Shown here: positions 1-31,255 of the stretch, one piece after another
Position numbering within the stretch: the first letter of the stretch is position 1
Layout of the letters: each line of letters opens with the position of its first letter
Source: Betaproteobacteria bacterium RIFCSPLOWO2_02_FULL_66_14
GTDB taxonomy: Bacteria > Pseudomonadota > Gammaproteobacteria > Burkholderiales > SG8-39
Reading direction: 5' to 3'
DNA: 43,977 bases
Assembly: GCA_001770475.1 (NCBI GenBank)
Contig: MERB01000016.1
Location: 23,274 to 67,250 of the forward strand
The notes under the pieces: model-generated
The model's database searches: none
The model's input: only the letters and a program-made list of their open reading frames with translations
What the model was told of the DNA's origin: nothing
Translations under genes and position numbers: made by a program

Positions 1-351
1 CGAGTAGCGCCCGCCGACGCGGTGCAGGTCCGGGCCGGTGCGCTTCGATCCCCACTGGAACGGATGGTCGTAGACGAATTCGCCCGCCACCGAGTAGTGC
101 CCGTAGCGCTCCACTTCGGCGCGCAGCGGTCGCACCATCTGGGAGTGGCAGTTGTAGCAGCCTTCGCGGATGTAGACGTCGCGCCCGGTGAGTTCCAGCG
201 CGGTGTACGGCTTGAGGCCCGCGACCGGCTCGGTCATCGTCTTCATGAACGACAGCGGCACGATCTCGACCAGCCCGCCGACTGCGATCACGAGGATGAC
301 CAGGACGATCAGGAGCGCCTGGTTGCGCTCGATCATGTCGTGGGTGAGCAT
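1..351 (-). CDS. ccoO: cbb3-type cytochrome c oxidase subunit II (CcoO), first 117 codons only; gene runs off the left edge
   Basis: Absent from the ORF track because no stop lies in the window. My translation of the reverse complement from 351 reads [33 protein letters not shown]...[26 protein letters not shown]...[20 protein letters not shown]. It shows an N-terminal TM helix, one CxxCH and the conserved [10 protein letters not shown] segment. The ATG lies 16 nt after the ccoN stop and is preceded by GGAAAGGGG. Confidence 0.93.
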
Positions 352-367
352 CCGGTTTCCCCTTTCC

Positions 368-1789
368 TCAGGCATGCGCGGGCGCCGGAATCGGCGCATC
401 GACCGGTTTCGTGCCGGCCACCGTCTTCCACACGTTGTAGAGCATGACCAGCATGCCGGCGAGGTACAGCACGCCGCCCAGCAGGCGGATGGCATAGAAC
501 GGGTAGGTCGCCTTGACGCTCTCCACGAAGGTGTAGGTGAGCGTGCCGTCGGCGCTCACGCCGCGCCACATCAGCCCCTGCATCACCCCGGCGATCCACA
601 TCGCCGCGATGTACAGCACGATGCCGATCGTGGCGATCCAGAAGTGCGTGTTGATCAGGCGCACCGAGTGCATCTCGGTGCGGCCAAAGAGCCGCGGCAC
701 GAGGTGGTAGATGCAGCCGATGCTCACCAGCCCGACCCAGCCAAGCGCGCCGCTGTGGACGTGGCCGATGGTCCAGTCGGTGTAGTGCGACAGCGCGTTC
801 ACCGTCTTGATCGACATCATCGGCCCTTCGAAGGTCGACATGCCGTAGAACGACAGTGACACGACGAGGAACTTGAGGATCGGATCGGTGCGCAGTTTGT
901 GCCAGGCGCCCGAGAGCGTCATGATGCCGTTGATCATCCCGCCCCAGGAAGGCGCGAGCAGGATGAGCGAAAACAGCATCCCGAGCGACTGCGCCCAGTC
1001 GGGCAGCGCGGTGTAGTGCAGGTGGTGCGGGCCGGCCCACATGTAGGTGAAGATCAGGGCCCAGAAATGCACCACCGACAGGCGATACGAGTACACCGGG
1101 CGCTCGGCCTGTTTCGGGATGAAGTAGTACATCATCCCGAGGAAGCCCGCGGTGAGGAAGAAACCGACCGCGTTGTGCCCATACCACCACTGCACCATCG
1201 CGTCCTGCGCGCCGCTGTAGGCCGAGTAGGATTTCCAGAGACTCACGGGAATCGCCGCGCTATTGACGATGTGCAGCACCGCGACCGTGATGATGAAGGC
1301 GCCGAAAAACCAGTTGGCGACGTAGATGTGTGCGATGCGCCGCTTGAACAGCGTGCCGAAGAACACCACTGCGTAGGCCACCCAGACCAGCGTGATCAGG
1401 ATGTCGATCGGCCATTCGAGCTCGGCGTACTCCTTGCCCGAGGTGTAGCCGAGCGGCAGCGTGACGGCGGCGAGCACGATCACCGCCTGCCAGCCCCAGA
1501 AGGTGAAGGCGGCAAGGCGATCGCCGAACAGGCGCGCATGGCAGGTACGCTGCACGACGTAATAGGAAGTCGCGAACAGGGCGCAGCCGCCGAAAGCGAA
1601 GATCACGGCGTTGGTGTGCAGTGGCCGCAGCCGGCCGTAGCTCAGCCAGGGCACATCGAAGTTCAGCTCCGGCCACAGCAGCTGCGCCGCGATGACCACG
1701 CCGACCAGCATGCCCACGACGCCCCAAACCACGGTCATGATCGCGAACTGCCGGACGACGGTGTAGTTGTAGCTGCCTTCGGTGGACAT
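368..1789 (-). CDS. ccoN: cbb3-type cytochrome c oxidase subunit I (CcoN)
   Basis: ORF 368..1855 shows haem-copper oxidase subunit I features ([49 protein letters not shown]; many TM segments). I trimmed the start to the internal ATG at 1789 ([12 protein letters not shown]). The longer N-terminus would cover the FNR box at 1849-1862 and looks non-coding. Confidence 0.95.
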
Positions 1790-1848
1790 ACGGGGCCCCG
1801 CGATGCGCGATGAATCGAAAAATCGTAAGGCGCCAGCCCCTCGCGGGG

Positions 1849-2852: not shown

Positions 2853-2858
2853 CGCCCG

Positions 2859-9956: not shown

Positions 9957-10820
9957 ATGCGCAAGGCTACCGCGTTCCGGCGTGCGCTGCTTCTTGCCGT
10001 TGCGCTGCAGGGCTGCGCGGCGACGCCACCGCCTGCGCCCGACTTCGCGTTCGCGCTGATGGGCGACATGCCGTATTCGCACGCGCAGGCCAACCTGCTC
10101 GACGAGCTGATCGCGCAAATGAACGCCGAGCCGCTCGCGTTCGTCGCGCACGTCGGCGACATCACCTCCGGCCGGGGGCCCTGCAGCGACGAGTGGCTGG
10201 AGGCGCGAAGGCGCCAGTTCGCGCGCCTCCGGCATCCGTTCGTGCTGCTGCCGGGGGACAACGAGTGGACCGATTGCCACCGCAGCGGTTTCGATCCGCT
10301 CGAGCGCCTAGCACGCTGGCGGGAGTTGTTCTGCGGGCCGGTCGCGTTGCACGCATTCCGGCGCCAGCCCGGAGCGCACTGCGAAAACGTGCTCTGGGAA
10401 GCGAACGAAATCGTCTTCGTGGGAGTGAACGTTCCCGGCAGCAACAACAATCTCGACCGCACTCCGCAAATGGACGCCGAACACTCGGCGCGAATGCGAG
10501 CCGTATTCGGCTGGCTCGAGGAAGCGAAGACTCTCGCGCAGGGGCGCGGCGCGCTCGTGGTGCTCATGCAGGCCGACCCGTTCCTCGCGCCGCGCGCGGG
10601 GCCGGACGGCTTCGCGTCGCTGCGCGATTGGCTGCGCCGCGCGGCGCAGGATTCTTCGCCGAGGATTCTGCTGGTCCACGGCGACACGCATTTTTTCCGC
10701 GACGACGAACCGCTTCCGCGGCTGCGTCGTGTCGTGGTGCCGGGTTCGCCGCAGGTTCGCTGGCTGCGCGCATCCGCGGTGCGCGGTGAATTTCGCATCG
10801 AGGTCGCCGATCCGCCCTGA
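9957..10820 (+). CDS. metallophosphoesterase family lipoprotein
   Basis: In ORF 9924..10820. The ATG at 9957 gives MRKATAFRRALLLAVALQGC, a lipobox. Phosphoesterase-type motifs are present: LMGDMPY, HVGDITS, LPGDNEW. Confidence 0.75.
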   Translation: MRKATAFRRALLLAVALQGCAATPPPAPDFAFALMGDMPYSHAQANLLDELIAQMNAEPLAFVAHVGDITSGRGPCSDEWLEARRRQFARLRHPFVLLPGDNEWTDCHRSGFDPLERLARWRELFCGPVALHAFRRQPGAHCENVLWEANEIVFVGVNVPGSNNNLDRTPQMDAEHSARMRAVFGWLEEAKTLAQGRGALVVLMQADPFLAPRAGPDGFASLRDWLRRAAQDSSPRILLVHGDTHFFRDDEPLPRLRRVVVPGSPQVRWLRASAVRGEFRIEVADPP

Positions 10821-10841
10821 GTTTTCGAACGGCCGCGTGCC

Positions 10842-10855
10842 TTGACCTGGATCAA
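10842..10855. promoter_or_regulatory. FNR/Dnr-type box TTGACCTGGATCAA upstream of the CbcL-like gene
   Basis: The palindrome is centred ~75 bp upstream of the ATG at 10924. It is identical to the box at 21326-21339. Confidence 0.75.
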
Positions 10856-10923
10856 CCGTCACCCGGCCGTCCATCTTTAAGGTACGGGGCGCCTGCAATT
10901 ACCCGGTTCAGAGGCCCCAATCG

Positions 10924-12909
10924 ATGAAGTGGTATAGCACAGGACTTTTGTCCGTCGGCCTGGTCGCGGTGCTGGTCGCGCTCGTCGCGTCGCCTGCGTT
11001 GACGCAGCAGTCGGCCAAGCCCGCCGAGACAGCGGCCGCGCCCGCGGCAGTGGCCGATGAACGTCCCGACAACGAGTCCTGCCTCGCCTGCCACGGCAAC
11101 GAGGGCTTCGAATCCGACGGGCCGAACGGCAAGAAGCGCGACCTCCACGTGAACGCCGAGCGCTTCGGGGGCAGCGTGCACGGCAAGCGGCTGTGCGTCG
11201 AGTGCCACAAGAACATCACCGAAGTGCCTCACGAGCCCGTGCAGGTCCGCGTGAGCTGCGTGCAGTGCCACGAGGATCTGTGGGCGGAGGCGGAGCGCGA
11301 CGGCAAGACGAAGGACCATTCGCGCCTGGGCGTGGTCGTCGAGCAGATCAAGCATTACATGCGTTCGATCCACGCCCGGCCGAGCCGCGCCGACCAATCG
11401 CGCACCAACGCGACCTGCTACAACTGCCACGAAGCGCATTACGTGTCCCCGGTCGGCAGTACCGGACGCGCGGACTGGCGCCTGGGCATTCCCGACGCCT
11501 GCGGCAAATGCCACGTCAAGCAGCGCGAGGAATACGCCCAGTCGGTCCACGGCAAGGAAGTCCTCGAGAACAAGAACCCGGTCGCCGCGATCTGCTCGGA
11601 CTGCCATACGACGCACGACGTGGAATCGGCGAAGCTCGACGCGAGCCGCCTCGTCATTACCAGGAACTGCGGCAATTGCCACCACGATGCGCTGAAGACC
11701 TACTCGCAGACCTATCACGGCCAGGTCAACACGCTCGGCTTTGCGTACACCGCGAAGTGCTTCGACTGCCACGGCAGCCACAAGATCCAGCGGGTCGCGG
11801 ATGCCTCGTCCACGGTGCACCGGGACAACCGCCTGCAGACCTGCAAGCAGTGCCACAAGGACGCGAGCGCCGGATTCGTCTCGTTCCAGCCGCACGGCGA
11901 CCCGCACGACCGCAAGGCCTATCCGCTGCTTTGGGGCACCTACGTCTTCATGATCGCGCTGCTTGCGGGCGTGTTCACGTTCTTCTGGTCGCATATCGCG
12001 CTGTGGTTCTACCGCGAGTACAAGGAACGCAAGGCACGTCTGGCGCGGCCGCACGTCGTGCTCGATGCGTTGCCCGAAGAATTCAAGGGCAAGCAGATCC
12101 AGCGCTTCGAACTGCCGTGGCGGATCGCGCACCTGCTGCTGCTGCTGAGCGTCATGGCGCTGGTGCTGACCGGCACCTCCGTGCTGTTCGCGCACACCGA
12201 GTGGGCGCCGATGGTGATGAGAAACCTCGGAAGTCCCAAGGTCGCGGCGCTGATCCACCGTGCCGCCGCGGCGTTGTTCATGGGCCTGTTCGTGTGGCAC
12301 CTGGTGTACCTCGCGATCCGCATGGCCCGCAGCGGCACGCCGTTCGACGTCTTCGGGCCCACATCGCTCGTGCCCAATCTTCAGGACCTGAAGGACATCG
12401 TGGCGATGTTCCAGTGGTTCTTCGGCAGGGCGCCACGGCCCAAATTCGATCGCTGGACGTACTGGGAGAAATTCGACTACTGGGCGGTGTTCTGGGGCGT
12501 CGGCGTGATCGGCGGCAGCGGCCTGGTGCTCTGGTTCCCGACGGTCGTCGCCACGTTCCTGCCGGGCTGGATCTTCAACATCGCGACCATCTTCCACGGC
12601 GAAGAGGCGATCCTCGCCGCGGTGTTCCTGTTCACGGTGCACTTCTTCAACAACCACTTCCGGCCGGACAAGTTCCCGATCGACGTCGTCATGTTCACCG
12701 GGCGCGTGTCGATCGAGGAGTTCAGGCACGAGCACGCGCTGGAATACAGGCGCCTGCTGGAAAGCGGCGAGTTGCAGAAGTACCTGGTGGACGCGCCGTC
12801 CGAGCCGCTGACGCTCGGCTCCAAAGTCCTCGGATTCACACTCATCACCATCGGCCTGATCCTGCTGTTGCTGGTCGTGACCGGATGGGTCAGCGGCATC
12901 ATGCAGTGA
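10924..12909 (+). CDS. nonahaem cytochrome c fused to a multi-TM b-type cytochrome domain (CbcL-like inner-membrane quinol/quinone oxidoreductase)
   Basis: 661 aa with a signal/anchor helix. It has nine CxxCH motifs (CLACH, CVECH, CVQCH, CYNCH, CGKCH, CSDCH, CGNCH, CFDCH, CKQCH). About six hydrophobic segments follow, with conserved His (RIAHLL, LIHRAA, VWHLV, FHGEEA, TVHFF), as in FdnI/HydC-type dihaem b cytochromes. Confidence 0.85.
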   Translation: MKWYSTGLLSVGLVAVLVALVASPALTQQSAKPAETAAAPAAVADERPDNESCLACHGNEGFESDGPNGKKRDLHVNAERFGGSVHGKRLCVECHKNITEVPHEPVQVRVSCVQCHEDLWAEAERDGKTKDHSRLGVVVEQIKHYMRSIHARPSRADQSRTNATCYNCHEAHYVSPVGSTGRADWRLGIPDACGKCHVKQREEYAQSVHGKEVLENKNPVAAICSDCHTTHDVESAKLDASRLVITRNCGNCHHDALKTYSQTYHGQVNTLGFAYTAKCFDCHGSHKIQRVADASSTVHRDNRLQTCKQCHKDASAGFVSFQPHGDPHDRKAYPLLWGTYVFMIALLAGVFTFFWSHIALWFYREYKERKARLARPHVVLDALPEEFKGKQIQRFELPWRIAHLLLLLSVMALVLTGTSVLFAHTEWAPMVMRNLGSPKVAALIHRAAAALFMGLFVWHLVYLAIRMARSGTPFDVFGPTSLVPNLQDLKDIVAMFQWFFGRAPRPKFDRWTYWEKFDYWAVFWGVGVIGGSGLVLWFPTVVATFLPGWIFNIATIFHGEEAILAAVFLFTVHFFNNHFRPDKFPIDVVMFTGRVSIEEFRHEHALEYRRLLESGELQKYLVDAPSEPLTLGSKVLGFTLITIGLILLLLVVTGWVSGIMQ

Positions 12910-12954
12910 GCCCCACCGCGTCCTTCGGTTCGCGCCGCCGGCCATGCTTCGACC

Positions 12955-12978
12955 CGCGCTTGACATAGGTCAAGCGCG
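12955..12978. promoter_or_regulatory. FNR/Dnr-type box TTGACATAGGTCAA embedded in a 10-bp-arm palindrome (alternatively a stem-loop after the CbcL-like gene)
   Basis: The sequence is cgcgcTTGACATAGGTCAAgcgcg, with the core at 12960-12973. It lies 46 nt after the stop at 12909 and ~180 nt upstream of the ATG at 13149. No T-run follows. Confidence 0.5.
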
Positions 12979-13148
12979 TGCAGGACCTCGCTGATAGGTT
13001 CATCCGGTCGCAGGCGTCGGTTGCGCGAGGGGGACAAGCACGTGAATCGGAATCACGGGTCGGAGCGTGTGCGGGTTGATGCGAAGGTCACTTGCCTTCG
13101 GGCACCGGCACGGTTAGCCGTCCCGCGCAAGACCTGAAACCAATACCA

Positions 13149-14147
13149 ATGCCCAGGCACATCTCCCGGTTGCTGCTGCTGTTCGTCGGCGCGGGCATTC
13201 TTGCCCTCGTCGCCAGGTGGTACTTCACCGCCGATACGTTTTACCAATTCGGCCATTTCCGTGGCAAGGCGGTAGGCGAAATCGCCGCCAAGGAGCCCGC
13301 TTATCAGACCGCCCGCTATTGCGAAGACTGCCACACCGAGCGCCATGCGCAATGGTCGGCGAACAACCACAAGAGCGTGAATTGCGAAGTCTGCCATGGC
13401 GCGGCGAAGGGCCATCCCGAGAACGGCAAGCTGCCCATTCCCGCCGACACGCGCAAGCTCTGCACGCTGTGCCATGAGCGCATGGCGGAACGGCCGCGCC
13501 CGCAGCCGCAGATCGATCCGGCCCAGCACTCTCCGGGCCAGCAATGCATCGTGTGCCACAACCCGCACGCGCCCAAGCTTGCCGGCGTCGTGGCGAAGGT
13601 GGCGGGCGACGCCGCCGCGGGAGCGAAGACCCACGCCGCGCGTTGCGCCGATTGTCACGGCGCTGCGGGGGTCAGCCCGAACGACTCCTGGCCGAATCTG
13701 GCCGGGCAGCACGGCGCCTACCTCGTCGGCATCCTGGCCGCGTACAAGTCCGGCGCCCAGACCGACGCCATGATGTCGCCCATCGCGCAGGGCCTGAGCG
13801 ACGCGGAGATCCAGAACCTCGCGACCTACTACGCCGGCCTGCGCTGCGAGGCGAAACCGCGCAAGTCACGCCTCGGCGATCCTGCGGCCGGCAAGGCGCT
13901 GGCGAAGAACTGCGCCGCGTGCCACGGCGATGCGGGCATCGGGGGCAATCCTGCGTGGCCGAACATCGCCGGCCAGGCGCCGGAATACCTGGTGAATTCA
14001 CTCAAGGCATTCCGCGCCGGATTGCGCAAGGATCCAATGATGGCGGGCGTCGTCCGCGGCCTGAGCGACACGGATATCGCCAACCTCGCCGCGTTCTACA
14101 GCGCGCAGAACTGCGCCCCCGCAGCCAAAGTGAAGGAAACGCCATGA
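13149..14147 (+). CDS. membrane-anchored hexahaem cytochrome c (N-terminal tetrahaem module + C-terminal c4-type dihaem module)
   Basis: In ORF 13092..14147. The ATG at 13149 gives MPRHISRLLLLFVGAGILALVARWYF, a TM anchor. The haem motifs are CEDCH, CEVCH, CTLCH, CIVCH, then CADCH and CAACH in c4-like repeats (PNLAGQ...Y...L..Y..G...D.MM....LSD.DI.NLA.YY). Confidence 0.88.
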   Translation: MPRHISRLLLLFVGAGILALVARWYFTADTFYQFGHFRGKAVGEIAAKEPAYQTARYCEDCHTERHAQWSANNHKSVNCEVCHGAAKGHPENGKLPIPADTRKLCTLCHERMAERPRPQPQIDPAQHSPGQQCIVCHNPHAPKLAGVVAKVAGDAAAGAKTHAARCADCHGAAGVSPNDSWPNLAGQHGAYLVGILAAYKSGAQTDAMMSPIAQGLSDAEIQNLATYYAGLRCEAKPRKSRLGDPAAGKALAKNCAACHGDAGIGGNPAWPNIAGQAPEYLVNSLKAFRAGLRKDPMMAGVVRGLSDTDIANLAAFYSAQNCAPAAKVKETP

Positions 14148-14974
14148 CCAATCCGTCCGACCCATCCGGGAAGGCGCGGCGCGAATTCCTCCGGCGGCTG
14201 GGCGGCGTTGCAGTCGCGTGCACCGGGGCGGCGGCGTGCTCGGTGGCGCCACAAAGCGGCGGACCCGTCGCGGGTCCGGACCCGTCCCCGGTCAAGGATT
14301 ACGACTGGACCAAGCACCACTGGGCCTTCGGCGTCGATGCGACGAAATGCATCGGCTGCCTGCGTTGCGTGGAAGCGTGCAAGACCGAAAACGACGTTCC
14401 CGGCGACGCGCACCACTTCAATACGTGGATCGAACGCTACGTCTACCTGGAGGGAGAAACCAAGGCGCGCATCGACAGCCACCACGACCCCGTCAACATC
14501 GCCGCCTCCGGGTCGGAAAAGGAATTCCGATTCGCCAACCGCTACCAGGACGCGAAGGTGGAAAAGGCCTTCTTCGTGCCCAAGCTGTGCAACCAGTGCA
14601 CGCACCCCGCCTGCGTTCAGGTGTGCCCGACCGGGGCGACCTACAAGAGCAAGGACGGCGTGGTCCTCATCGACGACAAGTACTGCATCGGCTGCCAGTA
14701 TTGCGTGCAGGCCTGCCCGTACGGGGCGCGCTACTTCAACCCGACCAAGGGGGTCACGCAGAAGTGCTACTGGTGTTATCACCGCATCACCAAGGGACTG
14801 CGGCCGGCCTGCGTCGAGGCGTGCCCGGTGGGCGCACGCATCTTCGGTGATCGCAACGACAAGCAGAGCCCGATCAGCCTGTTCATACGCAACAACCGCG
14901 TGCAGGTCCTGCGGCCCGAATCGGGCAACGAACCGAACGTCTTCTATGTCGGCATCGACAAGGAGGTGAGCTGA
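14144..14974 (+). CDS. Tat-exported 4x[4Fe-4S] ferredoxin subunit, NrfC/PsrB/HybA family
   Basis: In ORF 13544..14974. The ATG at 14144 overlaps the upstream stop (ATGA). It has the twin-arginine motif RREFLRRLGG and four Cys clusters (CIGCLRCVEAC, CNQCTHPACVQVCP, CIGCQYCVQACP, CYWCYHRI...ACVEACP). Confidence 0.9.
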   Translation: MTNPSDPSGKARREFLRRLGGVAVACTGAAACSVAPQSGGPVAGPDPSPVKDYDWTKHHWAFGVDATKCIGCLRCVEACKTENDVPGDAHHFNTWIERYVYLEGETKARIDSHHDPVNIAASGSEKEFRFANRYQDAKVEKAFFVPKLCNQCTHPACVQVCPTGATYKSKDGVVLIDDKYCIGCQYCVQACPYGARYFNPTKGVTQKCYWCYHRITKGLRPACVEACPVGARIFGDRNDKQSPISLFIRNNRVQVLRPESGNEPNVFYVGIDKEVS

Positions 14975-16185
14975 TGGAACCCGTCGGCTTCTGGGGGCAT
15001 CTTGTCGAAATCGCCCCGTACACGGGCTATGTGTACCCCAACGAGACGGCCATTCCGTGGACCGTGCTGATCGTCGTCTATCCCTACCTCACGGGACTGG
15101 TGGCCGGCGCCTTCACGGTATCGAGTCTTTATCACGTGTTCGGCATGGAACGGTTCAAGCCGGTGGGGCAGTTCGCGCTGCTCACGGCGCTCGCCTTCAT
15201 GCTCTTCGTGCCCCTGCCGCTGCTGCTGCACCTGGGCCACGCGGAGCGGGCGTTCAATACGATGCTCACGCCACACTGGACGTCGGCGATGGCCATGTTC
15301 GGCATGTTCGCCAGTTTCTACCTCCTCCTGCTGATGCTGGAAATCTGGTTCATGTTCCGGCCCTATGCCGTGAGGAAAGCGCAGCAGACAAGCGGGTTCA
15401 TCGGCAGGCTCTGGCACCTGGCGAGCCTCGGATCCGACGACCTTTCCGCGAAGGCGATGCGTTACGACGAGAAGTGGATTTTCGCACTGGCCGTGGTCGG
15501 CATACCCTCCGCGCACGGGCTGCACGGCTACGTGGGATTCATCTTCGGCTCCCTCAAGTCCCGCGAATGGTGGTCCTCCGACCTGATGCCGGTGGTGTTC
15601 CTGTTTTCCGCGATCATCTCCGGCGTCGCGCTGCTGATCGTCCTCTACGTCCTGTCCTGCCGGTTGCGCAAGATCCCGGTTGACCTGGCGTGCCTGAAGG
15701 GCCTGGCGTACGTGCTGTGGGGTTTCGCCATGTTCACCCTGGCGCTCGAAGGGCTGGAATTCGCCAACATCATGTACAAGGGCCGCGAAGGAATCGAGAT
15801 GATCGTGCAGTACGTGACCGGCCCGCTGCTGGTGCCGTTTTTCATCCTGCAGTTCAGCTTGGGGGCGGTGATCCCGATCACGCTGCTCACCTATATGATC
15901 TGGCGGGGCACCACCGGCAAGGCGCTGATTGCTGGCGTGACGGTGAGCGCATTGCTGGTATTGTTCCAGGTCTGGATGATGCGCTGGAACGTCGTCATCG
16001 GCGGGCAGGAAATTGCCAAGACCGGCAAGGGCCTGCTCACCTATCAGATGGTTCTGTTCCACAAGGAGGGCTTGTTGACGGCGATTGCCGTGGCGATTGC
16101 GCCGCTGTTCGTATTGCTCGCGATGGTTCGTGTGCTTCCACCGTGGTCAGCCGGCGCGCATGCTCACCAACGGAGCGTATCTTGA
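14974..16185 (+). CDS. NrfD/PsrC-family polytopic membrane quinone-interacting subunit
   Basis: 403 aa and strongly hydrophobic throughout, with an NrfD-like N-terminus (WTVLIVVYPYLTGLVAGAF). The ATG overlaps the NrfC-like stop by 1 nt, and an AGGAGG lies 8 nt upstream. Confidence 0.85.
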   Translation: MEPVGFWGHLVEIAPYTGYVYPNETAIPWTVLIVVYPYLTGLVAGAFTVSSLYHVFGMERFKPVGQFALLTALAFMLFVPLPLLLHLGHAERAFNTMLTPHWTSAMAMFGMFASFYLLLLMLEIWFMFRPYAVRKAQQTSGFIGRLWHLASLGSDDLSAKAMRYDEKWIFALAVVGIPSAHGLHGYVGFIFGSLKSREWWSSDLMPVVFLFSAIISGVALLIVLYVLSCRLRKIPVDLACLKGLAYVLWGFAMFTLALEGLEFANIMYKGREGIEMIVQYVTGPLLVPFFILQFSLGAVIPITLLTYMIWRGTTGKALIAGVTVSALLVLFQVWMMRWNVVIGGQEIAKTGKGLLTYQMVLFHKEGLLTAIAVAIAPLFVLLAMVRVLPPWSAGAHAHQRSVS

Positions 16186-16198
16186 CGGGAGAGCACTG

Positions 16199-17434
16199 AT
16201 GAAACGACCTGCACAGATTCTCTTGGCGATGGCGAGCGTGTTCCTTGCGGCGCTGATGGCCGGCTACGCGCCGACCGCCGGCGCCCAGTCGTCCACGGCC
16301 AAGCCGGCAGCGGGCGCCGGACCGGACTTGCGTTCGCTCTACGTCACGGCCCCTGAGGTTGCGGAAGGCAAGCGGCTCGCGGAAGTCTCGTGCGCCCGTT
16401 GTCACGGCATCAACGGCATCAGCACCGCGAAAGGCATCCCGCACATCGCGGCCCAGCGCGCGCCTTATATCCATCTCCAGATGCGCGATTACCTGCAGGG
16501 CAAGCGCCCTCAGAGCGCGATGACCGGGGCGGTGCGGTTTCTCAGCGACGACGCACTGGCCAAAGTATCGGCGTATTACGCGAGCATGGATCCGCCGCGC
16601 TCGGCGGCCGCGCCGGCCAGGGCCGCCGCGCAAAGACCAGATCCCGTGCAAGCGGGCAGAGCCGCGGCGGGCGCCTGCGCCGGCTGCCATGGCGACACCG
16701 GCATCAGCGAGACGCCCGGGTCTCCCAGTCTCGTCGGCTTCGATCCGAAATACTTCGTCGCGGCGATGAACGCCTACAAGAGCGGACAGCGCAAGAACGA
16801 CGTCATGAAAACGTTCGCGGCGGGAGTGAAGGACGCCGACCTGGCCAATCTTGCACTGTTCTATGCGCTGCAGAAGCCGGTTCGCGCTGCGACCAAGAGT
16901 ACGGGCGATGCGGCCGCGGGCAAAGCGGCAGCGAGCGCCTGCTCGGGTTGCCACGGCGACAAGGGTGTCGCTTCGGATCCGGCGACTCCGAGTCTCGCCG
17001 GCCAGGACGCGCAATATCTCGCCGTTGCGACGCAGGCCTACAAGGACGGCACGCGCAAGGACGAGACGATGAAGGGCGCGGCGGCCGATCTCAGCGAGAA
17101 GACCATACGCGACATCGCCGCCTTCTATGCCGCTCAGCAACCGCAAGCGCCGAAGGTTCGCAGACCGCTGAGCTTGACGGAATGGACCGAGCGCTGCGAC
17201 CGCTGCCACGGCATCAACGGCAACAGCAGCGACCCGATCGTACCCGCGATGGCGGCGCAGCGCGCCGACTGGCTCGAGGAGGTGATGAACGCCTATCGCA
17301 CGGGTGCGCGCAAGAGTGCCGCCATGAGCGCCATGATGTCGGTGTTGAGCGACGCAGAAGTCAAGGAACTCGCGGCACACTATTCGCAACAGACCGCGCG
17401 CGCCGTGTCCTTCATCGTGCTGCCCTCCAAGTGA
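16199..17434 (+). CDS. periplasmic tetrahaem cytochrome c built from four c4-type domains
   Basis: In ORF 16085..17434. The ATG at 16199 gives MKRPAQILLAMASVFLAALMAGYAPTAGAQ, a signal peptide. It has four CxxCH motifs (CARCH, CAGCH, CSGCH, CDRCH), each followed by a c4-like LAGQ/AAQ...Y.....Y..G.R...M segment. Confidence 0.88.
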   Translation: MKRPAQILLAMASVFLAALMAGYAPTAGAQSSTAKPAAGAGPDLRSLYVTAPEVAEGKRLAEVSCARCHGINGISTAKGIPHIAAQRAPYIHLQMRDYLQGKRPQSAMTGAVRFLSDDALAKVSAYYASMDPPRSAAAPARAAAQRPDPVQAGRAAAGACAGCHGDTGISETPGSPSLVGFDPKYFVAAMNAYKSGQRKNDVMKTFAAGVKDADLANLALFYALQKPVRAATKSTGDAAAGKAAASACSGCHGDKGVASDPATPSLAGQDAQYLAVATQAYKDGTRKDETMKGAAADLSEKTIRDIAAFYAAQQPQAPKVRRPLSLTEWTERCDRCHGINGNSSDPIVPAMAAQRADWLEEVMNAYRTGARKSAAMSAMMSVLSDAEVKELAAHYSQQTARAVSFIVLPSK

Positions 17435-17456
17435 CCTGCCAGGGAAGGATAAGACC

Positions 17457-18242
17457 GTGATCGATTCGCCCGTACATCGGCTGTACCACCATTTCTCCGA
17501 GTTGCCGGCAAGCTTGCGGGTCATGTACACCGCCGTGCTGCTCATGCTCGGCATGGGCTACCTCTTCGCCATTGTGTACCTGTTTCACAATTATTCGGGC
17601 AAGGACGGCAATTCGGCGTCGCTGTCCTACGACGACGTCGTCATCGCCTACAGCGGCACCGGCAAGGGATCCCGCCTGGAGGCCGCATTGCGGGGTTCGA
17701 TGTCGGTCATGCTGCCGTTCGAAGAGCGCGACGTGCTTCTCGGCTGGGTAAAGGACGGAGCCGACCGCGCCAGGTTCGAACCGGAAGTCCGGCCGATCCT
17801 GGACCGGCGTTGCATGGCGTGCCACGACGGCAGCAACCCGAACCTGGTCAATCTGAACGGCTTCGACAACATGCTCAAAGTCACCGAGCAGGACACCGGC
17901 GCCGGCTTCTTCACCCTGGTGCGCGTTTCGCACATCCACATGTTCGGCCTGACTTTCGTGTTTTTCCTCATGGGCACGATTTTCAGTCACGCCTATGTGC
18001 GTCCCGTGTGGTTCAAGTGCACCGTGATGGCGCTTCCGTTCATCAGCCTGGCGCTCGACATCAGCTCGTGGTACTTCACCAAGCTTTTCCATCCGTTTGC
18101 CGGAGTCGTCATCGTCTCGGGCGCCGTCATGGGCCTTTCGTTCGCCTACATGTGGTTCGTATCGATGTACCAGCTCTGGTTTGCCAAGCTGCCCGCTGCG
18201 ATCGCGCAACGCAGTGAAAGCAGAACACCGGATGTGGGTTGA
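17457..18242 (+). CDS. uncharacterised integral membrane protein with a single CxxCH in an extracytoplasmic loop
   Basis: 261-aa ORF with a GTG start and GGGAAGGA upstream. It has a TM helix near residues 22-45, a ~100-aa loop containing RPILDRRCMACHDGSNPNLVNL, then about three more TM segments (VSHIHMFGLTFVFFLMG..., CTVMALPFISLAL, AGVVIVSGAVMGLSFAYMWF). Confidence 0.65.
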   Translation: MIDSPVHRLYHHFSELPASLRVMYTAVLLMLGMGYLFAIVYLFHNYSGKDGNSASLSYDDVVIAYSGTGKGSRLEAALRGSMSVMLPFEERDVLLGWVKDGADRARFEPEVRPILDRRCMACHDGSNPNLVNLNGFDNMLKVTEQDTGAGFFTLVRVSHIHMFGLTFVFFLMGTIFSHAYVRPVWFKCTVMALPFISLALDISSWYFTKLFHPFAGVVIVSGAVMGLSFAYMWFVSMYQLWFAKLPAAIAQRSESRTPDVG

Positions 18243-18265
18243 GCGGCGAAATTTCGAGGACTCCG

Positions 18266-19408
18266 ATGAAACGCATGCTGCTGGGAATTTTGTGTGCGCT
18301 CGCCTTGGCGGGCTGTTCGAAGGAAGAACCTCCGAAGCCGGCCGCCAAGCCTGCCGCAGAACGCGCGCCTGGCGATCCCAAGGCGGGAAAGACGTTTGCC
18401 GACGGGGAGTGCAGGACCTGCCACGGCGCAGATGGCGGCAGCGTCGCACCCGGAGTACCCCATCTGGCTGGGCAGCGTGAAAGCTACCTGCTCGCTGCGC
18501 TTCACGCCTACAAGGAAAACAAACGCTCGCACGCCGCGCTCAAGGTCATCGCGGAGCACATGAGCGAGGCCGAGATCCGCAACGTGTCCGCCTACTACGC
18601 CAGTTTGCCGCCGGTCGGCCTGCTGCACGCGCCGAATGGCACGCAGGTTTCGCCCTACGAGCGCGGCAAGGCGCGCTCCGTGACCTGCGCAAAATGCCAC
18701 GGCGCGGATGGCAACAGCACCCTCCCAGGCGTGCCGAGCCTTGCCGGACAACAGGCCCGCTACCTCATCATCGCGTTGCACGAATACGCGCGTGCCGAAC
18801 GCAAGATTGCCGCGGCGCATACCGAAATGCGCTCGCTCACTCCGACCGACATGGAGGCCGTGGCGCTCTATTTCGCGTCGCAGGCGCCGATGCCGCGTCC
18901 CGCTCCGACCACTGGCGACCCCGCCGCAGGCGGTGCGCTGAGCGCGGTGTGCAGCGGCTGTCACGGCGCGCACGGGGTCAGCGCCGACTCGTCGACGCCA
19001 AACCTCGCCGGCCAGGACTTCAGCTATCTCGTGGAAGCGATCAAGGCGTACCGCACGACTCGCAAGCGGGAGAAGATGCGCCTTTACATCACCGGGCTGG
19101 GGGACACCGACATCCGCAACATCGCCGCGTTTTACACGGTGCAGAAATCACGCCCTGCCGAACGCGCGCAGACCATGGTGCGCGATCTCATCGACAGGTG
19201 CGACCGCTGCCACAGCGCGCAGGAGGAAATCCCGGGAATGCCAGTGCCGAAGCTGGCCGGCCAGGACCGTGACTACCTGATCATGGCGTTGCGCGCGTAT
19301 CGCGACGATCGTCGCGAAAGCACGACCATGCACAAAATGAGCCTGCCTTACGGCGACTCGGTCATCGAAGGCATCGCAGCCCACTACGCCGGCCAACCGG
19401 CGAAGTGA
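18266..19408 (+). CDS. tetrahaem c4-repeat cytochrome c lipoprotein (paralogue of 16199-17434)
   Basis: In ORF 18239..19408. The ATG at 18266 gives MKRMLLGILCALALAGCS, a lipobox. It has four CxxCH motifs (CRTCH, CAKCH, CSGCH, CDRCH) with the same domain order as the upstream tetrahaem protein. Confidence 0.88.
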   Translation: MKRMLLGILCALALAGCSKEEPPKPAAKPAAERAPGDPKAGKTFADGECRTCHGADGGSVAPGVPHLAGQRESYLLAALHAYKENKRSHAALKVIAEHMSEAEIRNVSAYYASLPPVGLLHAPNGTQVSPYERGKARSVTCAKCHGADGNSTLPGVPSLAGQQARYLIIALHEYARAERKIAAAHTEMRSLTPTDMEAVALYFASQAPMPRPAPTTGDPAAGGALSAVCSGCHGAHGVSADSSTPNLAGQDFSYLVEAIKAYRTTRKREKMRLYITGLGDTDIRNIAAFYTVQKSRPAERAQTMVRDLIDRCDRCHSAQEEIPGMPVPKLAGQDRDYLIMALRAYRDDRRESTTMHKMSLPYGDSVIEGIAAHYAGQPAK

Positions 19409-19423
19409 AGCGGCCGGCGCCGG

Positions 19424-20482
19424 TCAGTATTGCCGGTACTGGAAGCGGGCCTCGACCGGCAGCGGGCTTTCCGCGGTACGCACCCGCACGGTGACGACGT
19501 AGCTCGTTTTCGGCTTGAGCTTCACGTAGTTCCCATAACTCGCGAGCCTGTTGATCACGACGGGCTCGAGCGACTGGGTTTCGCTCGTCAGTCCGGGTTG
19601 CTCGACCTGCACCTCGACCTTCGCCTTCGCGATCGGCGCCTTGCTGACGCGATCGAGCACCGTGACGTTGGCGTGGAATTCGTTGTCGCCGCCCGGCACG
19701 CCGCCGTGCATCACCCGCTCGTACGAACCCTCGGGGTACTTGCGAAGCGCTTCCGCCGGGACGAAGCCGAGGTAGATGTCGAGGCCGCCGACCACCTTGT
19801 GCATGCCGGCCGGAACGAGCGCCTCCCTGGGCGCGGGCGCGCTCTTCGCCGGCACGACCGGGTTGTACATGTACAGAATCGCGCTACGCAACTCGGCATC
19901 GGTCAGGTCGGCGCGGTTGCCGCGCGGAGGCATGCCGCCGTGCCCGCGCACCGCGGAGCGCACCAGCGCTTCGACCCCCTGGGACAGCCGCGGCCTCCAG
20001 GCCTCCCGGTCGCCGATCCGCGGCGCCCCGCCCTCGCCCTTGGCATGGCACTTGGAGCATTGGATCTCGACGACGTGCTGTCCGCCGCGCTCGGCCATCA
20101 GGTCGGCAGCCGTCGCCGGCTCGATCCAGCTGCCGCCGGACCGGTTCACCATGTAGGTCACCGCGCGGGCAATTTCGAGATCGGAGAGTTTCAGGTCGCC
20201 GCCGTGCGCCGGCATTTCGCGAATCCCCTTGAGGGCGTGATCGGTGAGGCTGGTGAGGCCCTGAAACGCGCGCGTGCTCCAGGCCTTGCGATCGCCGATC
20301 CTGGGCGAGCCCTTGGCGCCGGTGGCGTGGCAGGACGAGCAGACTGCGTCGACCACCTGTTTGCCGCTGCGCTCGGCGGCCTGGACTCCTGCGCTGCCCG
20401 CCACGAGCAGCAGCACCAATGAAAGAAATCGGGCGACCGCCTGCAGAGGCGACGTTCCGGCGAGGCTGCAATCGAGTTTCAT
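19424..20482 (-). CDS. dihaem c5/c55x-type cytochrome fused to a ~140-aa beta-rich C-terminal domain of unknown function
   Basis: 352 aa with a signal peptide (LLLVAGSAGVQA). It has two class-I domains (CSSCH...EMPAHGG and CSKCH...GGMPPRG), then GLDIYLGFVPAEALRKY...HANVTVLD...YGNYVKLKPKTSYVVTVRV. Confidence 0.8.
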   Translation of the reverse strand: MKLDCSLAGTSPLQAVARFLSLVLLLVAGSAGVQAAERSGKQVVDAVCSSCHATGAKGSPRIGDRKAWSTRAFQGLTSLTDHALKGIREMPAHGGDLKLSDLEIARAVTYMVNRSGGSWIEPATAADLMAERGGQHVVEIQCSKCHAKGEGGAPRIGDREAWRPRLSQGVEALVRSAVRGHGGMPPRGNRADLTDAELRSAILYMYNPVVPAKSAPAPREALVPAGMHKVVGGLDIYLGFVPAEALRKYPEGSYERVMHGGVPGGDNEFHANVTVLDRVSKAPIAKAKVEVQVEQPGLTSETQSLEPVVINRLASYGNYVKLKPKTSYVVTVRVRTAESPLPVEARFQYRQY

Positions 20483-20551
20483 GCGGGCAGGTGTCCGGTA
20501 AGGAGACGTTTTCGGGATTGTAACCGAGCGCTTTTGCCGAGCTCCAAAACG

Positions 20552-20578
20552 AAAAAAGCTGGCCGAGGCCAGCTTTTT
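20552..20578 (-). terminator. rho-independent (bidirectional-looking) terminator after the small cytochrome gene
   Basis: The sequence is aaaaaagctggcc-gag-ggccagcttttt, a GC stem with A/T runs on both sides. It lies 19 nt downstream of the stop at 20597 on the minus strand. Confidence 0.8.
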
Positions 20579-20596
20579 CCGAAGCGCATTGCCCGA

Positions 20597-20875
20597 TTAC
20601 TTGAGCATCTGCTGCACGGCCGCCTTGAGTTCGGCGTCGGACTCCTTGGCCTTCGGGTGGCCTTTGCCATCCTTCAGCTTCGCCACCAGCATCGCCTCGG
20701 CATCCTTGTTGCCTTTGTATTTCGCGGAGACGTCCTTGATCGCGGGCCCGACCTTCTTCTTTTCCGCGTCGTGACACTTCACGCAACCTTTCAGCGCGTC
20801 GTCCGCCTGCACGGTACCCGCTGCGAACATCGCGGCTGCCGCCATGACCACCAACATCGACTTCATCGCGTCCAT
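20597..20875 (-). CDS. small periplasmic monohaem cytochrome c (c551/c552-like, lacking the usual Met loop)
   Basis: 92 aa with a signal peptide (AAGTVQA). It reads GCVKCHDAEKKKVGPAIKDVSAKYKGNKDAEAMLVAKLKDGKGHPKAK. Confidence 0.85.
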   Translation of the reverse strand: MDAMKSMLVVMAAAAMFAAGTVQADDALKGCVKCHDAEKKKVGPAIKDVSAKYKGNKDAEAMLVAKLKDGKGHPKAKESDAELKAAVQQMLK

Positions 20876-20956
20876 CCTTTCGTCAGTTTGGATCCCAGCG
20901 ACGCGATCGCGTGGCTTGCGTCAGGCAGCGTCCCGCGCAACCGCATCATCGTCCGT

Positions 20957-21250
20957 TCACTGCTTCTGCACCCACTCCATGATCGTCTTGAGCGCGGCGT
21001 CATCCGTTTTCTGCAACGCCGATTTGTGCACCGGCTTGCCCTTCATTCCCGCCATCGCCTCGTCGACTTTCTTGCCCTTGTACTTGGCGGAAATGTCCTT
21101 GAACGACGGTCCCACCTTCTTCTTGTCGAGTTCGTGGCAGTTCGTGCAGCCGCCCGCCTTGAGTGCGTCCGGCTCGCCAGACGCGAAAGCCGAAACCTGG
21201 AACGCTGCGACGACCAAGCCGATTGCCGTGGAAACGATGATGCGCTTCAT
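20957..21250 (-). CDS. small periplasmic monohaem cytochrome c, tandem paralogue of 20597-20875
   Basis: 97 aa with a signal peptide (FQVSAFA). It reads GCTNCHELDKKKVGPSFKDISAKYKGKKVDEAMAGMKGKPVHKSA. Confidence 0.85.
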   Translation of the reverse strand: MKRIIVSTAIGLVVAAFQVSAFASGEPDALKAGGCTNCHELDKKKVGPSFKDISAKYKGKKVDEAMAGMKGKPVHKSALQKTDDAALKTIMEWVQKQ

Positions 21251-21325
21251 GCGACTTTCCTCCCGAAAAAGTTAGGAACCATGCCAACTATTCACATCAT
21301 TTCAACGCATACGCTGCCCCTGAGG

Positions 21326-21339
21326 TTGACCTGGATCAA
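21326..21339. promoter_or_regulatory. FNR/Dnr-type box TTGACCTGGATCAA upstream of the small cytochrome genes
   Basis: The palindrome is centred ~82 bp upstream of the ATG at 21250 (minus strand). Confidence 0.7.
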
Positions 21340-21370
21340 GCGCAATTCGGGTGCCGGTCATGGCGAGGGC

Positions 21371-21384
21371 TTGACACAGGTCAA
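21371..21384. promoter_or_regulatory. FNR/Dnr-type box TTGACACAGGTCAA upstream of the Crp/Fnr-family regulator gene
   Basis: The palindrome is centred ~41 bp upstream of the ATG at 21419. Confidence 0.65.
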
Positions 21385-21418
21385 TCGCAGGAAACGCCCG
21401 TCCGCGATCATTTGTGCC

Positions 21419-22159
21419 ATGCACCAAGCGCTCCAAGGGACACGCGTAAACGGCGATGGCCGAACCCGGGACCCTCGCGTGCTCGAAGGCGTGCTCTCGA
21501 ATATCGCGCTCTTCCGGGGTGTCGCGCCGCGCCAGGTGGCGGAACTTGCAGCGCGTTCGAAGGCGCTGCACGTACGGCGCGCAGCGCACGTCAGCGAAAA
21601 AGGCGAATACCCCGCGGGGCTGCACGCGATTGCTTACGGGCAGGTGAAACTCGCGCTGCGCGCCGCCGATGGCGACGAGCGGGTGCTGCGCCTCGCCGGG
21701 GCCGGCGAATGCTTCGGTCTGGCGGTGGCGCTCCTCAACCGTCCGCAACCCTTCGAAGCGGTCGCGCTCGAAGACACGCTGCTGCTCGTCGTACCGACCG
21801 CGGCGATCCGTGTACTCATCGACAACGATCCCAAGTTCATGCACACCGTGCTCAACGCGGTTGCCGAGCGCGCGTTGATCCTGCTGGCGGAAGTCGAGTC
21901 CGGTTCGCTGCATCGCGGCGTGCAGCGGCTCGCGACCTACCTCGATTCGCTCGCCGAAGGCGCCGGTGGCAACGGGCGCTGCCAGGTGCAACTGCCGACC
22001 TCCAAGACGGTGGTGGCCTCCCGCCTTGGAGTGAAAAAGGAAACGCTCTCGCGCATGCTGCGCGACCTGAGCGAACGCGGCGTGATCAGCGTTGAGCAGC
22101 GGGACATCCAGATCCTCGATCGCCCGCGCCTGTCGGCGATCGCGCGCGAGGCCGCCTAG
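21419..22159 (+). CDS. Crp/Fnr-family transcriptional regulator (Dnr/NnrR-like; no N-terminal FNR Cys cluster)
   Basis: In ORF 20534..22159. It has a cNMP-binding-like fold (NIALFRGV...GECFG) and a C-terminal HTH with the FNR-class E--SR recognition motif (LGVKKETLSRMLRDL). The exact start is uncertain: the ATG at 21419 or a downstream GTG. Confidence 0.85.
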   Translation: MHQALQGTRVNGDGRTRDPRVLEGVLSNIALFRGVAPRQVAELAARSKALHVRRAAHVSEKGEYPAGLHAIAYGQVKLALRAADGDERVLRLAGAGECFGLAVALLNRPQPFEAVALEDTLLLVVPTAAIRVLIDNDPKFMHTVLNAVAERALILLAEVESGSLHRGVQRLATYLDSLAEGAGGNGRCQVQLPTSKTVVASRLGVKKETLSRMLRDLSERGVISVEQRDIQILDRPRLSAIAREAA

Positions 22160-31252: not shown

Positions 31253-31255
31253 GCG

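Follow-up and report, generated by a model that had tools for sequence, protein, structure and literature searches.

A modular 24-haem gene cluster from a betaproteobacterial genome as a candidate inner-membrane and periplasmic part of Mto/Mtr-type extracellular electron-transfer pathways

Contig MERB01000016.1 of Betaproteobacteria bacterium RIFCSPLOWO2_02_FULL_66_14 carries, within the 44-kb stretch analysed here as a whole (66% G+C; hereafter the window), seven plus-strand genes (g1-g7; Table 1) that encode multihaem c-type cytochromes together with an iron-sulfur protein and an NrfD-family membrane subunit. We favour, at somewhat better than an even chance, the explanation that this region is the inner-membrane and periplasmic part of an Mto/Mtr-type extracellular electron-transfer (EET) pathway, that it consists of three separable modules turned on at low oxygen via a regulator of the FNR/FixK/Dnr type, and that electron uptake is its most likely direction. 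In related loci the same modules recur beside genes for a decahaem MtrA-family cytochrome and an MtrB/PioB porin, and one type of regulatory box precedes the cluster, the neighbouring cytochromes and a cbb3 oxidase.

The products of g1-g7 contain 9, 6, 0, 0, 4, 1 and 4 CxxCH motifs, i.e., 24 in 2,724 residues; 2,000 residue shuffles of these proteins average 0.09 motifs and never exceed 2. Scanned in all six frames, the whole window yielded only 6 further CxxCH motifs, 4 of which belong to three minus-strand c-type cytochrome genes directly downstream. The first-pass annotation, made from the sequence alone, had reported the 24 motifs (9+6+4+1+4) in seven co-oriented genes, along with a 4x[4Fe-4S] protein exported by the twin-arginine translocation (Tat) pathway, an NrfD-like subunit and three tight junctions (14144, 14974 and 16186-16198), and all of these are present: g2 and g3 share an ATGA overlap (14144-14147), g3 and g4 a TGATG overlap (14972-14976, with the 1-nt overlap at 14974), and a gap of 13 nt (16186-16198) separates g4 from g5. 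The span given there for the cluster, 10842-19408, is right at its end, where g7 stops, but what begins at position 10842 is an FNR-type box, TTGACCTGGATCAA, rather than a start codon; the ATG of g1 lies at 10924. Judging by a conserved MPxHI N-terminus, g2 most likely starts at 13149 rather than at the TTG at 13092, and g7 most likely at 18266 (MKRML..., lipobox LAGC) rather than at the TTG at 18239. Families were assigned with Pfam and NCBIfam profiles, and NCBIfam equivalog scores were judged against the cut-offs of the models. Metagenomic contigs of up to 437 kb carry proteins identical to those of the window.

Table 1. Genes and FNR/FixK/Dnr-type boxes of the cluster and its surroundings (positions in the window)
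Feature	Position	Strand	Remarks
g1, CbcL/MtoC-type inner-membrane protein, 661 aa	10924..12909	+	nine CxxCH, PF01292
g2, membrane-anchored hexahaem cytochrome c, 332 aa	13149..14147	+	six CxxCH, Cytochrome_C7 plus Cytochrom_C/CBB3
g3, Tat-exported periplasmic 4x[4Fe-4S] protein of PsrB/NrfC/TtrB/DsrO type, 276 aa	14144..14974	+	Fer4_11
g4, NrfD-family integral membrane quinone/quinol-interacting subunit, 403 aa	14974..16185	+	Pfam NrfD
g5, periplasmic tetrahaem cytochrome, four class I c4-like domains, 411 aa	16199..17434	+	four CxxCH
g6, monohaem membrane cytochrome c with four transmembrane helices, PF27139 (Aq_1264_TM), 261 aa	17457..18242	+	precomputed Pfam hit
g7, lipoprotein tetrahaem cytochrome, four class I domains, 380 aa	18266..19408	+	four CxxCH, lipobox LALAGC
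dihaem class I cytochrome c, 352 aa, convergent with g7	19424..20482	-	adjoins the cluster in 36/80 related loci
MtoD-like periplasmic monohaem cytochrome c, 89 aa	20597..20866	-	one CxxCH
second MtoD-like monohaem cytochrome c, 97 aa	20957..21250	-	site where relatives hold mtoB-mtoA
Crp/Fnr-family regulator, FixK/Dnr/FtrB-like	21419..22159	+	gene callers place the start at 21281
ccoN (368-1789) and start of ccoO (1-351), cbb3 oxidase	1..1789	-	ccoN equivalog; ccoO with CcoO-like monohaem N-terminus
GlpC/HdrD-like CCG-domain Fe-S protein	6110-7459	+	FNR-type box 6005-6018 ahead
FNR/FixK/Dnr-type box TTGACCTGGATCAA	10842..10855		~75 nt upstream of the g1 start codon
FNR/FixK/Dnr-type box TTGACATAGGTCAA	12960..12973		in the 239-nt g1-g2 spacer
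two FNR/FixK/Dnr-type boxes	21326-21339, 21371-21384		between the MtoD-like gene and the Crp/Fnr gene
FNR-type box	1849-1862		60 nt upstream of ccoN
FNR-type box	6005-6018		between hsp20 and the CCG Fe-S gene

The modular organization of the cluster emerged from a comparison of related loci, for which we took the best 80 of 357 species-level genomes encoding a g6 orthologue. All 80 are metagenome-assembled genomes from soil and groundwater, assigned to Burkholderiales/Betaproteobacteria, Casimicrobiaceae, Sterolibacterium, Steroidobacteraceae, Sulfurifustaceae and unclassified Gammaproteobacteria. In 76 of them g5 lies immediately upstream of g6, while g7 is found in 61, g1 in 40 and the downstream dihaem cytochrome in 36; g1 often directly precedes g7 as a two-gene unit. 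The g2-g3-g4 genes occur together in about 30 loci and are never split, although in some they are inverted, in some they lie elsewhere and in some they are missing between g1 and g5. Thus, g1 (with or without g7), g2-g3-g4 and g5-g6 vary separately, and we consider them three modules that are merely contiguous in the window, which agrees with the 239-nt spacer between g1 and g2 holding a regulatory box of its own. Hence, the earlier description of a single cluster is correct for the contiguity of the genes, while in place of one complex there are three independent modules.

The same loci connect the modules to outer-membrane conduits. In the gene tables of two relatives, the immediate neighbours of the cluster include a decahaem cytochrome of the MtrA family and an MtrB/PioB porin (PF11854), and tblastn with these proteins detected MtrA/MtrB homologues within 10 kb of g6 in 35 of the 80 loci. 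Among the 33 loci with at least 8 kb on either side of the g6 orthologue, 24 hold MtrA-like decahaem and porin genes within 10 kb of it. These observations bear out the suggestion of the first-pass annotation that the cluster may be an extracellular or metal-directed, quinone-linked conduit, and they give a positive answer, in the relatives, to its question about co-occurrence with Mto/Mtr porin-cytochromes. In three loci (L025, L031 and L037) g1-g2-g3-g4-g5-g6-g7 is followed on the other strand by cyt-mtoD-mtoB-mtoA and then by the Crp/Fnr gene and thrC; the window keeps this frame from g1 to thrC, with the second MtoD-like gene where mtoB-mtoA would sit. A tblastn search for Mtr homologues and porin-cytochrome genes across the whole window found none, as the annotation had noted for porin-cytochromes; it had likewise seen no oxidase, yet ccoN and ccoO of a cbb3 oxidase lie at 1-1789, outside the coordinates it covered. 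Since the outer-membrane component is not at this locus, it would have to be encoded elsewhere or be replaced. L087 likewise carries mtoB-mtoA at this syntenic spot. Close relatives differ in whether they hold mtoAB and g2-g4, a pattern suggestive of modules being gained and lost.

Two further arrangements are informative about the inner modules. Minimal operons of mtoA-mtoB-g5-g6-dihaem cytochrome, all in one orientation, are present in several Casimicrobiaceae/Burkholderiales loci (L063, L073, L077 and L083 have such operons), and therefore g5-g6 alone can be the local partner of MtoAB. Moreover, an MtrC-like lipoprotein decahaem is encoded upstream of mtrA in nine mostly gammaproteobacterial loci carrying g5-g6 (e.g., L074, 1952-4237); hence the inner modules are common to mtoAB-type and mtrCAB-type conduits. 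Clustering of all open reading frames in the approximately 80 loci revealed no conserved substrate-converting enzyme around the cluster, in line with the earlier view that it has no catalytic subunit. Recurring extras comprise cytochrome c maturation (Ccm) genes, HemN, Crp/Fnr and RegA-like regulators and small monohaem cytochromes.

The pattern TTGAYNNNNRTCAA, characteristic of the boxes listed in Table 1, has 6 perfect matches in the window against 0.08 expected. The box at 12960-12973 marks a probable separate promoter for g2-g7, and given the 239-nt spacer in which it lies we divide the cluster into two transcription units, g1 and g2-g7; a promoter/terminator consensus scan of 10700-21500 gave a signal no higher than background. 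In the related loci there are 178 such boxes in 1.25 Mb, found upstream of mtrA (16 loci), g5/g7 (22), mtoC (11) and mtoD (10), and favouring also positions upstream of fnr. The regulator encoded in the window does not possess the FNR-type N-terminal Cys cluster, scores best with FtrB/FixK-type models and is syntenic in relatives. Collectively, ccoNO, the hsp20/CCG genes, g1, g2-g7 and the MtoD-like operon with the regulator, plus the porin-cytochrome genes of relatives, form one putative low-oxygen regulon, in which the cbb3 oxidase (ccoN NCBIfam equivalog, 807 bits versus a cut-off of 583) is a candidate co-regulated electron sink.

The first module, g1, consists of a signal/anchor sequence, an N-terminal periplasmic nonahaem c domain and an FdnI/HydC-like cytochrome b membrane domain. 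Each of its nine CxxCH motifs is accompanied by a conserved distal His, and nine haems are retained in 37 of 39 family members. The protein passes the PF01292 cut-off (31.5 versus 30.1 bits) and matches the formate dehydrogenase gamma model TIGR01583 weakly (2.9e-7); about six hydrophobic segments follow the haem domain, and the membrane His residues 357/403/445/558/573/578/604 are invariant in 39 orthologues. Geobacter CbcL and the betaproteobacterial MtoC/MtrH proteins are built in this way, as described for the CbcL/MtoC/MtrH family (PMC6295460), the assignment being one of architecture; the comparison with Geobacter Cbc complexes drawn by the first-pass annotation is thereby borne out for g1 (nine CxxCH and PF01292). 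For mtoABCD operons, MtoC has been proposed as the quinone oxidoreductase of the inner membrane (PMC6295460, PMC5566968, PMC8805035). A search of PDB chains with g1 returned weak matches to MtrC haem motifs only. In nine relatives, the gene directly upstream of MtoC encodes a protein (~435 aa) that combines an EB_dh (ethylbenzene dehydrogenase gamma/DOMON-like) haem domain with one CxxCH (e.g., L087, 5128-6438; L088, 12200-13507); this gene is absent from the window.

The second module, g2-g3-g4, combines haem, iron-sulfur and membrane subunits. In g2, one N-terminal transmembrane helix precedes four bis-His haems and two class I (c4/PdsA-like) His-Met haem domains, the distal His residues 74/89/127/140 and Met 209/298 being conserved in 27 orthologues. 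The g3 protein bears an RREFLR twin-arginine motif and 16 Cys residues in four ferredoxin-type motifs (Fer4_11, 7e-27); among NCBIfam models it scores 194.9 bits with DsrO (cut-off 200) and 193 with TtrB, and its nearest solved structure is PsrB (2vpw_B, 5.9e-47), followed at a distance by ActB of alternative complex III (ACIII; 3.5e-23). For g4, the Pfam NrfD match is clear (1e-38), while NCBIfam matches are weak and far under the cut-offs (DsrP 41.6, NrfD 38.1, HmcC 25.7), and PDB chains gave no match with either the single sequence or a 9-sequence profile; judged by these scores, g4 diverges from all named NrfD subfamilies. A look-alike has been reported in a preprint on Ferrigenium straubiae KS, where three adjacent genes (IMG 2878408594-96) encode a 'novel membrane-bound redox complex' (bioRxiv 10.64898/2026.01.22.701106) that is among the strongest inductions under nitrate-reducing Fe(II) oxidation (bioRxiv 10.64898/2026.01.22.701106).

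Class I c4-like domains, which occur in g2, g5 and g7, hold 10 of the 24 haems, and 8 of the 10 domains retain the canonical Met. The Met ligand is conserved in all four domains of g5 and in domains 3 and 4 only of g7; domains 1 and 2 of g7 do not have the Met present in every other c4-like domain of the cluster and may use another sixth ligand. On these ligand motifs, the class I domains are probably high-potential carriers, and thus they would point to electron uptake/oxidation rather than to metal reduction. Proteins g5 and g7 and the C-terminus of g2 match the PdsA model with 75-120 bits (74.7 for g2) as compared with a cut-off of 330, and therefore they are not PdsA equivalogs.

The most conserved gene of the cluster is g6, the membrane partner of g5 in the third module. 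Its homologues number 2814 at 90% clustering and 737 representatives at 50% identity, and the Pfam family to which it belongs, PF27139, is named after Aquifex aq_1264. Among family members that are 25-55% identical, G67, C119xxC122-H123, H161 and G222 are invariant, and M82, W97 and G101 (the WxxxGA motif), H159 and D201 are nearly so. The CxxCH motif lies in the first periplasmic loop and His161 at the periplasmic end of helix 2; g6 has no His pairs deep in the membrane, and therefore a transmembrane haem b is unlikely. An AlphaFold2 model built from a diverse 59-sequence alignment (predicted local distance difference test score (pLDDT) 90.3, predicted template modelling score (pTM) 0.81) shows four transmembrane helices and a helical periplasmic haem domain, as compared with an earlier model from a shallow 51-sequence alignment that reached a pLDDT of 66 and gave meaningless Foldseek hits. 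Foldseek searches of the PDB with the confident model returned nothing better than E = 1.3, a profile search of PDB chains gave no match, and neither did a Pfam and NCBIfam scan of the periplasmic loop. Membership of Slit_2494/PmcA, the Sideroxydans monohaem cytochrome that is co-expressed with Mto, in the g6 family was rejected, as PmcA is described as a soluble periplasmic protein with a signal peptide and g6 has four transmembrane helices. In one distant PF27139 member (L090, 40% identity, on a contig of 52% G+C, 1-2807), NrfD-like and tetrahaem genes lie upstream and a class I cytochrome gene downstream, which suggests, from one of four distant members whose contigs span 0.8-2.8 kb only, that the family generally accompanies such modules.

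We propose that in this pathway Fe(II), Fe(II) minerals or other donors outside the cell would deliver electrons to a pool of high-potential c-type cytochromes. Module A (g1, often paired with g7) may contribute nine bis-His haems wired to a dihaem-b quinone-reactive membrane domain; module B (g2-g3-g4) would be an ACIII/Psr-like chain that joins an NrfD quinone site to two high-potential His-Met domains by way of four [4Fe-4S] clusters and four bis-His haems; and module C would combine the four-helix monohaem protein g6 with g5 as a tetrahaem c4-like periplasmic relay. The MtoD-like and dihaem cytochromes could connect the modules and, in relatives, reach the MtoAB porin-cytochrome. From the c-type pool, electrons may flow downhill to the co-regulated cbb3 oxidase or to denitrification enzymes, and part of them may be driven by the proton-motive force via modules A and/or B to ubiquinone, feeding NADH synthesis and quinol-dependent enzymes. 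Such an entry into ubiquinone, at high flux, would presumably be required by a nitrate-reducing Fe(II) oxidiser for its quinol-dependent nitrate reductase and for reverse electron transport. In this scheme, the direction of flow, the redox potentials, the modules that touch quinone and the role of g6 are all our interpretation.

The direction of flow is the part of the proposal on which the alternatives bear most closely. We favour uptake because 8 of the 10 class I domains are His-Met, because MtoD-type carriers are of high potential, because most of the partner conduits are mtoAB without mtrC, and because cbb3 is co-regulated and the look-alike Ferrigenium complex is induced with Fe(II) as the donor. 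For Sideroxydans, which makes ubiquinone only, the potential of MtoD is +155 mV (PMC13390432). The opposite direction, towards which the first-pass annotation leaned and in which g1 and a NetBCD-like g2-g4 would oxidise quinol under anoxic conditions and pass electrons through periplasmic cytochromes and an Mtr/Mto porin-cytochrome to Fe(III), Mn(IV), humics or an electrode, we regard as unlikely, although it is the strongest competitor. CbcL and NetBCD-PdsA are indeed quinol dehydrogenases of reductive pathways (PMC6295460, PMC8805035), the MtrC-like outer decahaem of the nine loci described above is typical of reducers, control of the FNR type suits anaerobic respiration, and ImoA of the Mto pathway has quinol oxidation activity and may be bidirectional. 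However, most related loci hold mtoAB without mtrC; with ubiquinol as donor, the probably high-potential His-Met domains would form a thermodynamic trap before Fe(III) oxides; moreover, the cluster is co-regulated with cbb3 and the matching Ferrigenium complex is induced in Fe(II) oxidation.

Next in rank, and in our judgement improbable, is a respiratory hub that would be wholly internal in this organism, in which modules A and B would act as complex-III-like quinol:cytochrome c oxidoreductases that deliver electrons at low oxygen, through c4-type cytochromes, to cbb3 and/or periplasmic denitrification enzymes. Such a role would fit a window in which all cluster genes are intact although mtoAB is lacking, and in which the cbb3 genes lie 9 kb away behind the same box; c4-type cytochromes are the classical donors of cbb3, and the Ferrigenium authors read the similar-looking complex as ACIII-like and denitrification-specific. 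It leaves unexplained, however, the adjacency of mtoAB/mtrCAB in about three quarters of the well-sampled relatives and the minimal mtoA-mtoB-g5-g6 operons, and it would make three parallel quinol oxidases and MtoD-like shuttles redundant. We nevertheless consider both the quinol-to-outside flow and the internal ACIII-like role viable, the latter especially for this genome, in which mtoAB is not at the locus. Periplasmic sulfur-compound oxidation, with g2-g4 as a DsrJOP/Ttr-like module between reduced sulfur and quinone and the c4-like cytochromes as carriers, is very improbable: g3 does score just under the DsrO cut-off (194.9 versus 200) and near TtrB (193), some carriers are labelled Sulfurifustaceae and MtoC homologues occur in Sulfuricaulis, but dsrMK, sox, ttrA and a molybdopterin subunit are neither present in the window nor conserved in the related loci, and g4 falls far under the DsrP, NrfD and HmcC cut-offs.

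Several points weigh against the uptake pathway that we prefer. To our knowledge, MtoC is without any biochemical characterisation. MtrAB systems are reversible, and PdsA, a c4-like dihaem cytochrome, serves reductive EET in Aeromonas. Neither in the window nor in its close relatives L007 and L011 is mtoAB within reach, so that an EET role in this organism is drawn by association only. A redox link of g6 to quinone is speculative, given that g6 has no bis-His pairs, and the orthology of g2-g4 to the Ferrigenium complex and of g1 to bona fide MtoC is inferred from architecture. Finally, the Ferrigenium authors proposed an ACIII-like quinol oxidation with a speculative nitrite acceptor (bioRxiv 10.64898/2026.01.22.701106), by which module B would operate in the opposite direction.

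Within the uptake pathway, we find it possible, if doubtful, that the g5-g6 pair is an unrecognised inner-membrane terminus of Mto/Mtr conduits and, rather than MtoC or CymA, the commonest partner of MtoAB in several hundred uncultured soil and groundwater species of Proteobacteria. In such a terminus, His161 and Asp201 of g6, near the periplasmic face of the membrane and beside the c-haem, might form a quinone site or an oxidase-docking site, and g5 might be the tetrahaem relay; these two possibilities, a quinone site at the membrane surface and oxidase docking, are the roles of g6 that are of most interest. The two quinone entry points proposed by the first-pass annotation would perhaps become three, should g6 prove redox-active with quinone. 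If true, this reading answers concretely how electrons from extracellular Fe(II) enter the respiratory chain. Our literature searches turned up neither the g5-g6(-g7) module nor the combined cluster beside mtoAB, no mention of aq_1264, and nothing linking MtoC with NrfC or MtoA with NrfD in this sense.

The surroundings of the cluster add further observations. The first of the MtoD-like cytochromes (20597-20866) is 60-70% identical to small cytochromes flanking mtoB in L087 and L088, and a role has been proposed for MtoD (PMC5566968, PMC13390432); Pfam/NCBIfam scans of the small cytochromes (20597-21250) gave no match. The dihaem cytochrome ends in a C-terminal domain of about 130 aa (residues ~215-352) that is apparently beta-rich and likewise has no match in Pfam/NCBIfam scans. 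Directly upstream of g1, a plus-strand lipoprotein gene (9957-10820) shows a weak metallophosphoesterase match and 62-71% identity to counterparts in L087, L011 and L037, but no assignable match in the Pfam/NCBIfam scan. The GlpC/HdrD-like protein (6110-7459) has two CCG domains and ferredoxin motifs and is syntenic with the cluster in L087 and L037; by analogy to Tmc/DsrMK, it is a possible cytoplasmic partner of a membrane cytochrome b. On the minus strand of 1-5478, a zinc-type alcohol dehydrogenase gene lies between ccoN/ccoO and the gene for a copper P-type ATPase with an ATPase-cat_bd domain typical of CcoI/FixI. In six relatives a sensor histidine kinase with a periplasmic CxxCH is encoded near the cluster (L037, 17392-19026), and RegA-like response regulators occur in ten loci. 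Farther downstream in the window are Arn-type genes of lipid A aminoarabinose modification (27179-33200: ArnT, GT2 glycosyltransferase, formyltransferase, epimerase/dehydratase) and a region of lower G+C (34000-38700; 0.61 versus ~0.67) with an MmeI-family restriction-modification enzyme (35768-38614) and a DUF5131 (phage Gp37/Gp68-like) gene, which may be an acquired island.

Parts of this system have already been named or noticed, namely MtoC, MtoD and the g2-g4 type (the Ferrigenium complex). We found no earlier description of the combination of genes, of its modular linkage to mtoAB/mtrCAB across hundreds of uncultured species, of the common FNR-type regulon or of the module built on PF27139. 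In neutrophilic iron oxidation, the least understood step is the passage of electrons, once taken from extracellular Fe(II) or minerals, across the periplasm and into quinone or an oxidase, a step that also bears on electrosynthesis at cathodes. We know of no components of the inner-membrane step that have been studied biochemically apart from CymA and ImoA; MtoC is, in this respect, a gene name. The locus and its relatives in 357 genomes define a recurrent toolkit of three candidate inner-membrane modules, independently gained and lost beside mtoAB/mtrCAB, which offers marker genes of the potential for iron or electrode oxidation among the abundant uncultured Burkholderiales and Gammaproteobacteria of soils and aquifers, and names specific genes for expression studies, titration and deletion.

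Among known systems, the mtoABCD operons of Gallionella capsiferriformans ES-2 and Dechloromonas aromatica RCB and CbcL of Geobacter sulfurreducens resemble the locus in g1, with its nine CxxCH motifs and FdnI/HydC-type cytochrome b with conserved membrane His residues; MtoD-like monohaem cytochromes adjoin the cluster of the window, and the clusters of relatives adjoin mtoA-mtoB. Unlike mtoABCD, however, the window locus has no mtoAB and adds g2-g4, g5-g6 and three multi-domain c4-like cytochromes. The Ferrigenium complex has the same gene order as g2-g3-g4 and the same parts, namely a hexahaem cytochrome in which two His-Met haems come after four bis-His haems, a 4x[4Fe-4S] protein like PsrB and a membrane subunit of ACIII/Psr-like type, and its induction during anoxic Fe(II) oxidation agrees with the FNR/Dnr-type box ahead of g2; the difference is that g2-g4 of the window share one operon with g5-g6-g7, beside MtoC. 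In NetBCD and PdsA of Aeromonas hydrophila/Vibrio (a divergent NrfBCD quinol dehydrogenase and a periplasmic dihaem shuttle for MtrCAB), a cytochrome c, an NrfC-like Fe-S protein and an NrfD-like subunit likewise work without a catalytic partner, but there NetBCD acts in reductive EET, whereas in g2 the dihaem part is fused to the multihaem subunit and adjacency to mtrCAB/mtoAB is seen in the relatives of the window only.

The first-pass annotation had also proposed comparison with ACIII, Qrc and Hmc, and to none of these could the cluster be assigned. ACIII (ActABCDEF) shares with the cluster a membrane-anchored multihaem cytochrome c, a periplasmic Fe-S protein, an NrfD-type quinone subunit, lipoprotein cytochrome c partners and the lack of a substrate-converting site, and it links quinone to high-potential cytochromes and oxidases. 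Membership was rejected in view of g3, which at 276 aa holds Fe-S clusters only and no molybdopterin-like ActB1 part (there is no molybdopterin-family open reading frame in the window), and in view of one NrfD-family gene instead of two (ActC and ActF), no ActD, and g7 as a lipoprotein tetrahaem cytochrome versus the monohaem ActE; moreover, the haem subunit has 4+2 haems versus 5, and g3 is nearer to PsrB than to ActB (5.9e-47 versus 3.5e-23). Qrc, Hmc, Tmc and DsrJOP of Desulfovibrio are similarly catalytic-subunit-free assemblies of multihaem cytochrome c, Fe-S and NrfD-type or cytochrome b subunits. Here, Qrc was rejected on QrcC (92.9 bits versus 400) and on the lack of a QrcB-like gene in the window, Hmc/Tmc on HmcB (112.7 versus 420) and HmcC (25.7 versus 550), and DsrMKJOP on DsrO (194.9 versus 200) and DsrP (41.6 versus 350), with neither dsrMK nor dsrJ present; the high-potential class I domains of the cluster are foreign to these systems of sulfate reducers.

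The periplasmic relay proposed here would have its counterpart in Acidithiobacillus ferrooxidans, in which two class I dihaem c4 cytochromes follow an outer-membrane Fe(II) oxidase: Cyc1 leads downhill to the terminal oxidase and CycA1 uphill to a quinone-reducing complex. We propose a like role for g5, g7 and the dihaem cytochrome, with the difference that in the window the c4 units are duplicated to four domains per protein, one of these proteins being lipid-anchored and one paired with a new membrane cytochrome.

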